Assembly (NCBI GenBank): GCA_963762585.1 | Contig: CAVXLF010000020.1 | Span: 33,913 to 97,912 of the forward strand | Origin: an uncultured Verrucomicrobiae bacterium | Lineage (GTDB): Bacteria > Verrucomicrobiota > Verrucomicrobiia > Limisphaerales > UBA11358 | Direction of reading: 5' to 3' | Length of the DNA: 64,000 nucleotides | Part shown: in pieces, positions 9,036 through 14,364 of the stretch | Numbering within the stretch: the stretch's first letter is position 1 | How the letters are laid out: every line of letters begins with the position of its first letter | Notes under the pieces: generated by a model | What the model saw: the letters and a program-made list of their open reading frames with translations, nothing else | Database searches by the model: none | Told to the model about the DNA's origin: nothing | Program-made: the position numbers and the translations under genes

Positions 9036-10001
9036 TTAGTCCGCCTTGGGTTTGCCCCGATGTTCCTCGTAGGCGGTGATGATGCGTTGCACGAGCGGAT
9101 GCCGGACCACGTCGCGCTTGCTGAACTCCACAACGGCAATGCCTTCCACGTTGTTCAATACCCGGTGGGCCTCGAGCAGGCCGGAATACTTGTTGGGCGG
9201 CAGATCAATCTGCGTTTCGTCGCCGGTGATGACGGCCTTTGATCCGTGGCCCAGCCGGGTCAGAAACATCAGCATCTGTTCCGTTGTCGAATTCTGCGCC
9301 TCGTCCAGGATGATGAAGGCATGGTTCAGCGTGCGGCCGCGCATGTAGGCCAGCGGCGCGATTTCAATCGTCCCGCGCTCGGTGTGCTTCTGGATTTCCT
9401 CCGCGGGCAGCATGTCGTGCAGCGCGTCCTGCAGCGGGCGCAGGTAGGGCGTGATCTTTTCGTAAAGGTCGCCCGGCAGAAAACCGAGCGCCTCGCCGGC
9501 TTCCACGGCCGGTCGGGCGAGGATGATTCGTGAAACTTTCCCGTCGCGCAACGCGGCAAGCGCCATCGCCACGGCCAGATAGGTTTTGCCCGTGCCCGCC
9601 GGTCCGACGCCGAAGGTCACGTCGTGTTTGCGAATGGCCTCGAGGTATTTCTTTTGCCCGACGGTTTTGGCGGTGACGCCCGGTTTCCGTTCGTGCGTCA
9701 TCACGCGGTCGTTCACCAAATCCTTGAGGGTCTCGCCGCCTTCATGCTTCACCACGTTCAGGGCATGGGTGAACTCGCGGTTGCGGACGGGCGTGCCGGC
9801 CTTCAACAAGGTTTCCAGTGAAACGAAAAGATGCCTGGCGCGTTCGAGGGCGTCGGCCGGCCCTTCGAGCTTGATCCAGCCCTCGCGCGCGGTGACCTTG
9901 ACGCCCAGTTCGGCTTCGAGGGATTGCAGGTTGCGCGGCTCATGGTTGAACAGTTGTTGCGCGACACGCGCGTTTTCAAAATGAAGGGTTTCGGTGGCCA
10001 T
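9036..10001 (-). CDS. phoH: PhoH-like ATPase (YbeZ)
   Basis: GPAGTGKTYLA, RPAVEAGEALGFLPG, AYMRGRTL, DEAQN, VRHPLV; start MATETLHF at 10001. Confidence 0.95.
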   Translation of the reverse strand: MATETLHFENARVAQQLFNHEPRNLQSLEAELGVKVTAREGWIKLEGPADALERARHLFVSLETLLKAGTPVRNREFTHALNVVKHEGGETLKDLVNDRVMTHERKPGVTAKTVGQKKYLEAIRKHDVTFGVGPAGTGKTYLAVAMALAALRDGKVSRIILARPAVEAGEALGFLPGDLYEKITPYLRPLQDALHDMLPAEEIQKHTERGTIEIAPLAYMRGRTLNHAFIILDEAQNSTTEQMLMFLTRLGHGSKAVITGDETQIDLPPNKYSGLLEAHRVLNNVEGIAVVEFSKRDVVRHPLVQRIITAYEEHRGKPKAD

Positions 10002-10312
10002 TACAATTGCAACCAGTTTCGCAACCGGCCATCCAGGATTCCAGAGTCCTTCGCCGAGAGTTGGCCAACAATTTTCACCACCAGCCGTTCTGCCACGGTT
10101 GCCAGTTGGGCTTTGACGCCGGAAGGAACATTCAACCCTGTTGCGCGCCATTCTTTAATAGGGAAATCTGTGTTGGCCAGCACCGACGAAATGGGGACAA
10201 GAAACAAATCCATTTCCTTTTTGCCAACAACGATAGCCGGGCGAACCTTGCGGCTGGTCAGATCCGTAAACGGAATCGGCAGGAGAACCACGTCATTTCT
10301 TGAGCAGTTCAT
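10001..10312 (-). CDS. PemK/MazF family toxin
   Basis: DVVLLPIPFTDLTSRKVRPAIVV...VPISS...GLNVPSGVKAQLAT, PemK/MazF signature. Confidence 0.85.
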   Translation of the reverse strand: MNCSRNDVVLLPIPFTDLTSRKVRPAIVVGKKEMDLFLVPISSVLANTDFPIKEWRATGLNVPSGVKAQLATVAERLVVKIVGQLSAKDSGILDGRLRNWLQL

Positions 10313-11109: not shown

Positions 11110-12279
11110 TCATTCGAACAAACTCGAGATCGCGGCGGCCGCGCGCCGGCTGGCGCCGGGTTCGCCCAGCGACGAAACAATTTTCGCCAGTTGCGACTTG
11201 ATTTGGGCGCGTGCCGGCTCGTTCTGCAACAGTTCCAGCGCGGCTGCCGCAAGGTTTTCCGGCGTGGCGTCGTTTTGGATGAATTCGGGAAAAATCATCT
11301 CATCGGCCAGGATGTTTGGCATCGTCAGCCATTTCACGTTCACGATGAACCGACCAATCTGGTAGGTGCTCCACGACGTTTTGTAGAGCGTCACCGTCGG
11401 CACACCAAAGAACGCGCATTCCATCGTCACCGTGCCCGTCGAGGCAATGGCGACATCAGCCTGTCCCAGCGCCTCCGGCAGGTTGCCAATCTGAATTTCG
11501 ACGTTTGGCTGGGGTGCAGACAGCGTGTCCGCGAGTTCCTTCAACGCCGGGTTCGGCAAAACCATCTTTGCTTTCGCGCCTGGCAATTTGTTCTGAATCA
11601 ACTTCAGCGCATCCAGCATCGGTGGCAGATGCCGTTTCAATTCGCTCGTCCGGCTGCCGGGCAACAGTAAAATTTGCGGTTGCGAAGCCGACGACACATT
11701 CTCGCTTCTGGCTTCTGACTTCTGACTTCTGTCATTCGTAAATCTCCCGACCATCGGGTGCCCGACAAATTCCACCCGCAACTTCGGTGCGTGCCGCGCA
11801 TACCATTCCTTTTCAAATGGGAAAATACTCAGGAGCAAATCATAATCCGCTTCCAGCAGTTTCGCGCGGCGTGGCCGCGACGCCCAGACCTGCGGCGAGA
11901 CAAACTGGATGATTTTGGGGTTCCAGTTCGCGAAGGGATTGTTGCGGATATATTCCTTGATCGCGTGACCGAAACGCAGATTAAACCCGCCATAATCCAC
12001 GCCGATGATGGCGTCCGGCTGGTGTTCGATGGCCAGAGCCAGCAGTTGATTGAACAGCCGCCGGAACTTTAAATAATTTTTCAGCACGTCCGAGATGCCG
12101 ATGACCGAATGCCGGGTCAGGTCGAACGCCAGTTCGACGCCGGCGCCGGCCATTTTCGGTCCGCCCGCGCCAAAAAACGTTGCGTCCGGCAATGTGCCGC
12201 GCAACGCGGAAACCAGTTCCGCCGCGAGCAAATCCCCGCTCGCCTCACCGGCGATGAGCATGAACGATTTCGGTTTCAC
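11110..12279 (-). CDS. lpxB: Lipid-A-disaccharide synthase
   Basis: IAGEASGDLLA, SPQVWASR, IFPFE, FVGHP, LLPGSR, TGTVTMECA. Confidence 0.95.
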   Translation of the reverse strand: MKPKSFMLIAGEASGDLLAAELVSALRGTLPDATFFGAGGPKMAGAGVELAFDLTRHSVIGISDVLKNYLKFRRLFNQLLALAIEHQPDAIIGVDYGGFNLRFGHAIKEYIRNNPFANWNPKIIQFVSPQVWASRPRRAKLLEADYDLLLSIFPFEKEWYARHAPKLRVEFVGHPMVGRFTNDRSQKSEARSENVSSASQPQILLLPGSRTSELKRHLPPMLDALKLIQNKLPGAKAKMVLPNPALKELADTLSAPQPNVEIQIGNLPEALGQADVAIASTGTVTMECAFFGVPTVTLYKTSWSTYQIGRFIVNVKWLTMPNILADEMIFPEFIQNDATPENLAAAALELLQNEPARAQIKSQLAKIVSSLGEPGASRRAAAAISSLFE

Positions 12280-12290
12280 GGTCTTATTTT

Positions 12291-12316
12291 ACCGCAGAGA
12301 CGCAGAGACGCAGAGA
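12291..12316. repeat. Left arm of inverted repeat, AC(CGCAGAGA)3
   Basis: accgcagagacgcagagacgcagaga; 23/26 match to reverse complement of 13137-13162. Confidence 0.9.
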
Positions 12317-12319
12317 AAT

Positions 12320-13132
12320 TCATGGAATCAATTCGTCCAACGCGCGACATTTTCCACCGCGATGAATCATTGCGTGGCAATTTGTGCAGACTACAGCCAA
12401 ATCATCAAGCGATGTTTTGGAAGGCGATTCTCGGTCGGCCAGTGGTTTCAAATGGTGAACGTGAGCAAAATCCTTTCCGAGTTCTCCGTAAACTTTTTCA
12501 AAGTCAAAGCTACAACCTGGCACTTCGCAAATTAATCGGCCTAGATTCTTTTGTCGTGCTTGTTTGAGTTTCACATTGCGGAGTATTTGCTCTCGTTTTC
12601 GATGTCGAATCAAAGCAATCCTTTCTTCGCCTTCAAACGCCGTGATTTCATCATCAACAAAAACGCTGCCAAGACTGGATGCCCCAATGTGTTCAGCCCA
12701 AATGTGCTCTAGCTCTTCGGCGATTTCTGATGGGATCAAGATACCTGAAGACTGTGACGTCCAGTGCATCGCAGCAAGTTTGCCACTTTTCAATCGGGAC
12801 AATGAAAGTGGCTCGTCGACGTATGGATTAAGAAGTCGTTCCCATTCGCAACCAGCAAAAAATGTTTTTTCACCAATGGCGGCTTTTTCTTTATTCCAAT
12901 GAACATCAATTTGTGGGTCAGAAGTAGTCCAACCCGATGCGATTATTCCTTTTGGTTCTTCACTGCCAAGCTTAATAAGAAATGCGCGGTCGCCCTTTCT
13001 AATTCGTCTGGCATTCGCGTGACAACTCCAACGGTCGGAAATAATTTTTCCGGAAGCATTTTCATTTGCCCGTAGGGCTAAATCTTTCCATGTCCATTGT
13101 TTTGGATTCCATGTAAAAAGATATGTTTTCAT
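12320..13132 (-). CDS. EVE/PUA-like + McrA-type HNH endonuclease (putative modification-dependent, type IV, restriction enzyme)
   Basis: N-term YLFTWNP...WSC...KGDRAFL...GIIASG (EVE-like); C-term CEVPGC...HVHHLKPL...VVCTNCHAMIH; visibly AT-richer than neighbours. Confidence 0.8.
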   Translation of the reverse strand: MKTYLFTWNPKQWTWKDLALRANENASGKIISDRWSCHANARRIRKGDRAFLIKLGSEEPKGIIASGWTTSDPQIDVHWNKEKAAIGEKTFFAGCEWERLLNPYVDEPLSLSRLKSGKLAAMHWTSQSSGILIPSEIAEELEHIWAEHIGASSLGSVFVDDEITAFEGEERIALIRHRKREQILRNVKLKQARQKNLGRLICEVPGCSFDFEKVYGELGKDFAHVHHLKPLADRESPSKTSLDDLAVVCTNCHAMIHRGGKCRALDELIP

Positions 13133-13136
13133 TTTT

Positions 13137-13162
13137 CCTCAGCGCCTCTGCGTCTCTGCGGT
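13137..13162. repeat. Right arm of inverted repeat
   Basis: cctcagcgcctctgcgtctctgcggt; fills nearly the whole gap between the upstream stop and the HNH ATG. Confidence 0.9.
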
Positions 13163-14205
13163 TAAACGTTTTGGATTTGTCGCGTGATTTCGAAGGCCAG
13201 ATCCAGCGCGCGTTTGGCGGATTCGCCGCTGACGGCGGGCGTCTGTTTCTCGCGCACGCAGTTCACAAAATGCTGCAGTTCCAGCTTCAGCGGCTCGTCC
13301 TTCGCAATCGGCACCGGTTCGCGCACAATTTTTTTGCCGGCAAACTGGCTGACTATCATGGAGTCCTTGCCGACACCGAGTTTTGCCGCCAGAACTTTTT
13401 TTAAAATCGAGCTTTCCGCTTCGTCTTCGCGGGCGATGCGGTAGATGAATCCTTCCTGCGCGCGATAATCGAGTGAGATATAGCTCGGGGTGGTTGTGCC
13501 GCCACTGAACACGCGAATCTTTCGCATCCGCTCCGGGCTGACCCGGCTGGCGGTGAGGTTGGCCACGCAGCCGTTGGCGAAACGCAGCCGCGCGTTCGCA
13601 ATGTCCTCGCTCTTGCTCAAAACCGGAATGCCCACCGCGTCCACGCTCGTCAGAGGCGATTTCACGAAGGCGAGCACGACGTCGAGGTCGTGAATCATCA
13701 GGTCGAGCACGACGCCGATGTCGGTCGAGCGGGCAGGGTAGGGCGACAGCCGGTGGCACTCGATGAAGCGCGGCTCCGGCGCGGCGCTTTCGAGATACTT
13801 AAAGACGGGATTGAACCGTTCGACGTGGCCGACCTGCAGGACGCAATTCTTCTGCTGCGCAAGCTGCACCAGTTCGGCGGCCTGCTCCGTGTTGTCGGTC
13901 ATCGGTTTTTCGACCAGGACGTGTTTGCCCTGGGCGAGCAATTGTTTTGCGAGTTCAAAATGTGTGGTGGTGGGCGTGACGACGTTGACGGCGTCGCTGG
14001 CGGCGGCGGCTTCGGCAACGGAATTGAAAACGCGGGTGTTGTATTTGGCGGCGATTTTGCGCGCGGCGTCGGGGTTCACGTCAAAAACGCCGGCGAATCC
14101 GACCTGGCCGGTTTTTGCCAGTTCGGCGTAGAGGCGCGCGTGATGTTGTCCCAGCGAGCCGACGCCGAGAACGGCCACCCGGATTTTAGGGTTTGAAGTT
14201 GCCAC
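13162..14205 (-). CDS. Gfo/Idh/MocA oxidoreductase, GnnA-like (lpxB-linked)
   Basis: VAVLGVGSLGQHHARLY, HVLVEKP, QVGHVERFNP, VVLDLMIHDLD; GTG start at 14205 (ORF-track extension is repeat-derived). Confidence 0.85.
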   Translation of the reverse strand: MATSNPKIRVAVLGVGSLGQHHARLYAELAKTGQVGFAGVFDVNPDAARKIAAKYNTRVFNSVAEAAAASDAVNVVTPTTTHFELAKQLLAQGKHVLVEKPMTDNTEQAAELVQLAQQKNCVLQVGHVERFNPVFKYLESAAPEPRFIECHRLSPYPARSTDIGVVLDLMIHDLDVVLAFVKSPLTSVDAVGIPVLSKSEDIANARLRFANGCVANLTASRVSPERMRKIRVFSGGTTTPSYISLDYRAQEGFIYRIAREDEAESSILKKVLAAKLGVGKDSMIVSQFAGKKIVREPVPIAKDEPLKLELQHFVNCVREKQTPAVSGESAKRALDLAFEITRQIQNV

Positions 14206-14222: not shown

Positions 14223-14364
14223 GAAAACTGAAAACTGAAATGAGAAATCTCGCGCGAAGGACGCGAAGGAAACGAAGGCGAAAACCTTCAAATCTCCTTC
14301 GCCGCCTTCGCGGTCCTTCGCGCGACCTTCCCAACTTTGGACTTTGAACTTTGGGCTTTGGACT
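14223..14364. repeat. Composite repeat: (GAAAACT)n + inverted three-unit CGCGAAGG element (14250-14325) + (CTTTGGA)n
   Basis: tcgcgcgaaggacgcgaaggaaacgaagg...ccttcgccgccttcgcggtccttcgcgcga flanked by heptamer arrays. Confidence 0.85.

Follow-up and report, generated by a model that had tools for sequence, protein, structure and literature searches.

A Predicted EVE-HNH Nuclease Gene between Inverted Three-Unit Repeats at a Variable Junction of a Verrucomicrobial Lipid A Operon

Introduction

Integron cassettes are single promoterless accessory genes, often defense-like, that carry one attC site each and are exchanged at a fixed site. MITEs and mobile insertion cassettes have inverted ends around a non-transposase gene, and many of their copies are empty. 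MIC231 is named among the mobile insertion cassettes (PMC6542083). REP/REPIN-RAYT elements, REPtrons, and TIRtrons are short dispersed inverted repeats, mostly intergenic, that also form empty doublets; in REPtrons and TIRtrons, a small nuclease-type gene is framed by the same repeats, and the enzyme of the RAYT systems is a Y1 transposase (PMC3733652). In Xanthomonas, the heptamer GGGAATC, a G-quadruplex-forming unit, is found in tandem and in inverted pairs, mostly between genes of the same direction (Rehm et al. 2015, PMC4692102). Fast gene turnover between conserved genes, including turnover of defense-like genes, has been described for hotspots free of mobile genetic elements, whose flanking genes bear traces of recombination (Oliveira et al. 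2017, PMC5635113). Finally, VcaM4I is an EVE-HNH nuclease dependent on 5mC/5hmC, with a base-flipping pocket formed by P24, W82, and Y130, of which W82 has been equated with Y82 of the EVE protein 2eve (PMC7897488).

The locus described here comes from an uncultured member of the Verrucomicrobiae and lies in a 64-kb window (the whole stretch of DNA that was analyzed). A single gene for an EVE-HNH protein, referred to below as the cargo, sits within a lipid A operon between two short inverted repeats, referred to below as the arms. The arms resemble REP-type elements in being short, dispersed, inverted, and mostly intergenic, in forming empty doublets, and in framing a small nuclease-type gene. 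They differ from REP sequences in consisting of three tandem non-palindromic 8-nt units without a GTAG/CGTC tag, in being linked to a GxxExxY enzyme of the PD-(D/E)XK type instead of a Y1 transposase, and in enclosing exchangeable cargo genes (PMC3733652). With the Xanthomonas heptamers they share tandem short units, the inverted arrangement, and the position mostly between genes of the same direction; in contrast to the situation here, the available part of that description (PMC4692102) reports neither enclosed cargo nor a linked nuclease for the 7-nt unit. The turnover of genes, some of them defense-like, between conserved neighbors and the signs of recombination in the flanking genes are common to this junction and the hotspots free of mobile elements, which, as far as the available account goes, differ in that here a repeat pair stands in fixed register to the cargo start and stop and the same cargo recurs at unrelated junctions (PMC5635113).

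Terminal inverted repeats, a non-transposase gene, and many empty copies are MITE-like or mobile insertion cassette-like traits of this family, whereas it lacks a consistent target duplication and its arms follow the locus. No insertion sequence with these ends was found; of the two candidate enzyme families checked, Y1 genes have no arms and GxxExxY genes do. The single promoterless accessory gene, often defense-like and exchanged at a fixed site, is reminiscent of an integron. In contrast to the one attC site per integron cassette, there is one inverted pair around the gene, and the slots are scattered in housekeeping operons. No integrase-family match was found on contig C20, the nearest family matches being on other contigs, and the feature is not an integron cassette. 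In the literature on GxxExxY, tandem inverted repeats, REP/REPIN, MITE/mobile insertion cassettes, EVE-HNH proteins, and hotspots (a survey mostly of the main text of open-access papers), neither arm-marked exchange slots nor a GxxExxY-associated family of three-unit arms was found described.

Anatomy of the locus

The two 26-bp inverted arms are identical at 23 of 26 positions, including all of the outer 17. The upstream arm (positions 13137 to 13162, minus strand) consists of AC and three 8-nt units, the third of which is a variant; the downstream arm (12291 to 12316, plus strand) is inverted relative to it and has three perfect 8-nt units. In a repeat search, the match between them extended to 32 nt at 88% identity, and the arm pattern was found five times in the 64-kb window, against 0.01 matches expected. 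The upstream arm shares one base with the TAA (13162 to 13164) of the upstream host gene, which codes for a Gfo/Idh/MocA oxidoreductase (13162 to 14196, minus strand; found in 140 of 151 genomes). An 11-nt spacer (12280 to 12290, minus strand), a slot-specific flank common to relatives with other cargo, separates the downstream arm from the start of lpxB (11110 to 12279, minus strand; TIGR00215, above cut-off). The space between the arms is taken up by a single ORF of 270 codons (12320 to 13132, minus strand), on the same strand as both host genes; 3 nt lie between its stop and the downstream arm, and 4 nt between its start and the upstream arm.

This layout agrees with the first-pass annotation, which had described an AT-richer EVE-like and HNH gene bracketed by 26-bp inverted three-unit arms (23/26, outer 17 identical) lying 3 to 4 nt from its stop and start, an upstream arm at the TAA of a gnnA-like gene, and no transposase between the arms. 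Two of its details need qualification. The gnnA-like protein does belong to the Gfo/Idh/MocA family but passes no NCBIfam cut-off. The motif GAGGA, read as a Shine-Dalgarno sequence in the variant third unit, is present, but it is not conserved in that unit. Because it lies 3 nt before the ATG and the arm directly adjoins the start codon (0 nt) in 6 of the 19 close EVE-HNH homologues, it does not qualify as a conserved Shine-Dalgarno feature, and this assignment was rejected on account of the varying spacing.

A single base separates the 23-nt core of the upstream arm from the arm of a related genome (G016) in which this position is occupied by an Lnt-like gene. Contigs of near-identical strains from peat metagenomes span both junctions at about 97 to 99% identity; contig joints that skip the cargo mostly have sides shorter than 45 nt, probably represent arm pairs from other loci or organisms, and were left aside. 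Searches against Rfam returned three weak matches, all far below the gathering level.

The cargo gene has a GC content of 44.2% in a genome of 58.3% GC, and a value this low is found in only 5 of the 1608 predicted genes of this genome longer than 150 amino acids. The McrA-type HNH domain (residues 200 to 258; 12359 to 12535, minus strand) is recognized by Pfam (PF01844, E 3e-6, above cut-off), whereas the EVE (PUA-like) domain (about residues 1 to 149; 12686 to 13132, minus strand) stays below the cut-off for PF01878 (19.7 versus 23 bits). A profile built from 35 sequences matched EcoKMcrA (6ghc, E 1.4e-8) through the HNH domain as well as the EVE protein 2eve. A Foldseek search with the AlphaFold model of the cargo (pLDDT 83.6) retrieved 2eve, THYN1 (5j3e), and VcaM4I (6yex) at probabilities of 0.99 to 1.00, confirming, at the level of the predicted structure, that the N-terminal domain has the EVE fold.

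In the 35-sequence alignment, the HNH residues C202, C207, H226, H227, C249, N251, H253, and H257 are invariant or nearly so, P10 is nearly invariant, and the profile has a Trp at about position 79 that aligns to Y82 of 2eve. The EVE sensor, linker, and HNH domain follow each other in the same order in the cargo, VcaM4I (PMC7897488), and EcoKMcrA. The cargo and VcaM4I are 11 to 12% identical in the structural match, and they differ in the HNH domain, which is McrA-like in the cargo, with cysteine pairs and His, and for which H224, D250, and D254 are named in VcaM4I (PMC7897488). Given the EVE and HNH profile and structure matches, including the one to VcaM4I, the cargo is predicted to be a modification-dependent restriction nuclease directed against phages. 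No C5 methyltransferase was found in this 79%-complete genome, which is weakly compatible with restriction of DNA with modified cytosine. The cargo protein had no PADLOC match at E 0.001 and no NCBIfam match; the closest named homologues are from Verrucomicrobia, one of them labeled subdivision 3.

The gnnA-lpxB junction in related genomes

The sequence that follows the gnnA-like gene was obtained from 95 genomes and was complete to lpxB in 82 of them; without four genomes from other families and one with a mis-called lpxB start, 77 complete junctions of the genus remained. In this set, which is not a random sample but consists mainly of the genomes most similar to the window in gene sequence, 17 junctions have no insert and 60 have one. 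Both arms are present at 11 junctions and one full arm at 11, so that 49 of the 60 inserts lack a full arm pair. An arm remnant of at least two units was detected in 27 of the 60 inserts (1.8% per end in shuffles).

The both-armed junctions differ in content. EVE-HNH genes are found in the present genome (G000), G129, and G112, and a broken one in G121; an Lnt-like gene in G016 and G163; another HNH fusion in G159; an unknown gene of 262 codons in G107; a nested Y1 transposase in G070; and no gene in G008 and G157. The Y1 gene of G070 lies inside the arms but has its own REP-like repeats. Three more cargos come from junctions that are incomplete: an HNH fusion (G084), an M48 peptidase (G011), and a GIY-YIG protein that matches PD-T4-3 (G100). 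In G016 and G163, which are close on the gnnA tree, the arms of the Lnt-like gene are at the same positions and the outer flanks are near-identical. A member of another family (G047) has an internally deleted EVE-HNH gene between arms. The three states in which the first-pass annotation expected to find relatives (no insert, arms only, and a different cargo between the arms) were all observed. In the comparative sense, the element is variable and mobile. At the same time, two genomes (G019 and G104) carry a 48%-identical EVE-HNH homologue at this very junction without arms, and, as described below, most clear arm pairs of the present genome enclose no intact gene; both observations count in part against the first-pass interpretation, which is only partly supported.

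Such a mixture could also arise at an ordinary transfer hotspot, where genes would turn over by illegitimate insertion and homologous recombination in the flanking core genes, and the arms would land independently at the same permissive junctions, as passengers only. The abundance of inserts without full arms agrees with this, as does the accumulation of REP/RAYT elements, with repeats of their own, at the same gnnA-lpxB junction; mobile-element-free hotspots with core-gene recombination have been described (PMC5635113). Junctions with and without an insert are interspersed on the gnnA tree, and the final codons of gnnA go together with the arm allele, as flanking-gene recombination predicts. 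Passenger arms would, however, leave unexplained why at five unrelated junctions members of one gene clade are found 0 to 9 nt inside the arms, why arms accompany the Lnt-like gene only outside its usual locus, and why cargo starts and stops fall within a few bases of the arms (see below). This explanation is considered unlikely, although more probable than the other alternatives.

Several further features of the junction were noted. Around REP/RAYT inserts, small arrays have been built by duplication of the first 12 to 28 codons of lpxB, often including the downstream arm (L038 in G003, L057 in G129, L074 in G121, L019 and L037 in G027, and L025 in G022). HNH domains with different or extra N-terminal regions that have no Pfam match are found at L064 (G159), L068 (G084), L058 (G106), and L074 (G121); this variety, as seen in the sequences, suggests swapping of sensor domains. 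Defense-like cargos at the same junction, with matches to UzuA, PDC-M11A/B, and PD-T4-3, include L193 (G124), L171 (G063), and L211 (G100).

EVE-HNH genes at other junctions

EVE-HNH matches were found in 15 of 163 genomes of the genus and 17 of 301 genomes of the order, and a further scan of contigs added few close homologues. Of the 19 close homologues, defined as full-length and at least 46% identical, 11 are armed on at least one side, including 6 that are armed on both; the distant homologues have none (0 of 11). Armed EVE-HNH genes occupy five junctions, gnnA-lpxB, oppD-oppF, fabI, argA, and dxr, and at these unrelated sites members of the clade start and stop 0 to 9 nt inside the arms. 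Armless or partly armed copies are also found at purQ, argC, and one other site, and the copies in G149, G368, and G284, located away from gnnA-lpxB, are armless. The names fabI, argA, and oppF come from an NCBIfam search; the junction genes dxr, purQ, and argC are presumably identified correctly.

In the protein tree, the cargo forms a cluster with G389 and the oppD-oppF copy of G030 (support 93), to which the gnnA copies of G129 and G112 do not belong. The first 450 nt of the gene (its 5' half) are 78 to 88% identical to the G030 copy, and the last 180 nt are 89 to 93% identical to the fabI copy of G107. Judging from these identities, the cargo gene is a mosaic of copies from other slots. 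The short arm pairs of the present genome at oppD-oppF and argA contain matches to the 3' end of EVE-HNH genes in the expected strand orientation (none of 200 shuffles reached the score in either case), with narrow score margins (41 versus 40 and 34 versus 33 for the best shuffle), and are probable EVE-HNH remnants at the sequence level. In this test, 8 of 11 short-pair interiors were unconvincing (p 0.02 to 0.89); those that passed were the two just named and the G047 junction.

A second cargo is distributed in a comparable way. The Lnt-like gene is present in 95 of 162 relatives and is armless at 27 of its 30 best loci, many of which are one usual locus; it has both arms at gnnA-lpxB (G016) and argA (G084). 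These two slots hold EVE-HNH in other genomes, and two slots thus share two cargos. Overall, arms are rare at argA and oppD-oppF: they were found at 1 of 30 argA loci and at 1 of the 8 oppD-oppF inserts that could be scored (of 30 loci, 15 were unscorable and 1 was mis-called). The inserts at both being mostly armless, single genes turn over there without arms. Starts with MKT are frequent among armed cargos, compared with 33 of 1158 genes in this genome, and are only a hint because EVE-HNH proteins start in the same way without arms.

Nucleases are common among the armed cargos (EVE-HNH, two other HNH fusions, and GIY-YIG), and many copies are broken or deleted (G047, G171, G121, and the two probable remnants in G000). 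Both would be expected of a selfish, homing-type nuclease that cleaves slots with no cargo or another cargo and is copied into them when the break is repaired. Still, the N-terminal EVE fold is typical of modified-base sensors and not of sequence-specific binders, the same slots are used by cargos that are not nucleases, and the distant homologues are armless, which makes a homing drive highly improbable.

Arm families and associated nucleases

The genome contains 28 strong copies of the 8-nt-unit arm, compared with 1 in a shuffled version, along with sibling families with 9- and 10-nt units. Nine of the 28 form seven short gene-less pairs, 2 belong to the present locus, 3 have partners no better than expected by chance, and 14 stand alone; an intact gene is enclosed by 1 of 8 clear pairs. 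Genome-wide, the GC content on the inside of these 28 arms is 0.564, versus 0.589 on the outside, and because this drop is only small, most arms do not enclose foreign genes.

Two GxxExxY genes are present in this genome, in 9- and 10-nt arms; none with the 8-nt word of the window was found in this 79%-complete assembly. Of 40 relatives, 36 have GxxExxY. Among 29 loci, each the best match of its genome, and with arms called by a chosen motif set, 15 have both arms of some listed type, 23 have at least one, and 6 have arms of the 8-nt type on both sides. At one locus (L264), the GxxExxY gene of G013 is framed by an arm word identical to that of the window. Judged by these gene neighborhoods, the enzyme linked to the arms is GxxExxY. 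The RAYT/Y1 transposase suggested by the first-pass annotation as a mobilizer did not show this association: none of the five Y1/RAYT genes of this genome has an arm within 300 to 400 nt, and this candidate was rejected for now.

Other repeat arrangements in the same genome include an array-like series of six 10-nt-unit arms, 0.5 to 3 kb apart and in near-identical context (G000:C24:53159-63148), and mixed pairs with arms from different unit families (G000:C6:38679-41631, C12:163536-164287, and C2:32586-33560), the first of which encloses an ORF of 794 codons and 48% GC. Genes for four-helix-bundle proteins (PF05635) at C28:13296, C6:64839, C12:73362, and C9:94207 adjoin arrays of 7-nt units, a parallel to the GxxExxY genes in 8- to 10-nt arms.

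Possible movement of arms and cargo

Among 16 elements at the gnnA-lpxB junction, the distance between arms correlated with that between flanks (rho 0.535, p 0.0006), a relationship that is partly circular because arm-adjacent bases belong to the repeat word, and did not correlate with that between cargos (rho -0.075, p 0.72); these p values overstate the case because the genomes are related and not independent, and the arm of G159 was out of register by one unit. Within 18 elements, the left arm covaries with the right (p 0.0008 and 0.003). G129, G107, and G008 agree in arm variant and flank but each encloses something different, whereas G112, the closest EVE-HNH relative of G129, has a different arm variant. 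The longest exact direct repeat flanking 13 elements was 0 to 4 nt, with no consistent target duplication; these short repeats correspond to the palindromic arm end, and old duplications could have decayed. Several empty junctions with an arm-type gnnA end suggest clean secondary loss. The observations are best read as resident arms between which cargo would be exchanged, with slot alleles spreading by core-gene recombination. No recombination intermediate was observed in the metagenome contigs.

A non-autonomous transposon of the MITE or mobile insertion cassette type, with arm, cargo, and arm moved as a whole in trans, most plausibly by GxxExxY, would account for the armed EVE-HNH genes at five junctions, for the matched left and right arms, and for the short spacer between cargo stop and arm, which is similar across loci; the frequency of GxxExxY (36 of 40 relatives, both arms at 15 of 29 loci) also speaks for it. 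It would not account for arms that follow the locus and not the cargo, as the four genomes just compared illustrate, or for flanking repeats that are no longer than the palindromic arm end, and the Y1 genes of this genome have no arms. Movement of the whole unit is hence rated as improbable. Of the repeat-bounded cassette that the first-pass annotation had placed in this lipid A operon, the variable, arm-marked cargo is retained, and the mobilization in the manner of a MITE or integron is not.

The repeats likely mark single-gene exchange slots, since the same repeats hold other genes or nothing and the same gene is found within the repeats elsewhere. In the reading preferred here, with a probability of about 0.55, the arms would be resident repeat copies that mark a variable slot, and EVE-HNH would likely have moved between slots by recombination at the arms or just inside them. 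An arm pair would first colonize an operon junction, for which the GxxExxY nuclease is a candidate agent, and a gene would then enter the loop between the arms. Later cargos would replace the resident one by way of short stretches of homology, provided by the arms, by the codons at either end of the gene, and by related cargo sequence; filled alleles would spread among relatives through ordinary recombination in the flanking core genes, and cargo would be lost by internal or clean deletion. Such a route of exchange between slots is apparently undescribed.

A more far-reaching proposal is that the arms and GxxExxY constitute an undescribed integrase-free gene-cassette system, in which the nuclease would seed and cut slots in housekeeping operons. 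This is offered tentatively, as is its corollary that single genes, including defense nucleases with exchangeable sensor domains, would be captured and shuffled between slots; it is equally speculative that the RNA stem would keep the host operon coupled while throttling the cargo.

The comparative evidence portrays a widespread repeat family as exchangeable single-gene slots inside core operons. It allows a short DNA target and a candidate enzyme to be proposed for the uncharacterized GxxExxY family and offers a concrete mechanism for some of the hotspots regarded as free of mobile elements. The junction is also a new place to look for defense genes, having yielded proteins similar to PD-T4-3, UzuA, and PDC-M11 and HNH nucleases with unknown N-terminal domains.

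Expression and neighboring sequences

The gap between the stop of the gnnA-like gene and the start of the cargo is 30 nt and contains no promoter-like site. The sole promoter-like match falls inside the cargo gene, at chance level, and an internal promoter was rejected. Promoterless read-through of the cargo from the operon promoter would fit this anatomy; three RNA runs did not cover the cargo and are uninformative on its expression. In the predicted fold of the transcript, the two arms base-pair with each other, and GAGGA is covered (z -2.83). Such pairing would mask the ribosome site of the cargo and place the stop of gnnA close to the start of lpxB. The protein made from the transcript would cut DNA with modified cytosine.

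At 12323 to 12276 (minus strand), an ATG that overlaps the cargo stop opens a 15-codon ORF that runs through the downstream arm, and its TGA overlaps the GTG of lpxB. The same relay is present in G163 and absent from G129 and G112; it could couple lpxB translation to that of the cargo.

Elsewhere in the window, an in-frame tandem array of 7-nt units lies within lpxB at about 11706 to 11735, and a gene-less pair of 9-nt-unit arms, followed by 7-nt-unit arrays, lies at about 14250 to 14325 in the divergent gap before plsY. A lower-GC ORF of 103 codons follows the HIT gene at 10001 to 10312 (minus strand); its product presumably resembles the bacterial toxins of the PemK/MazF type.
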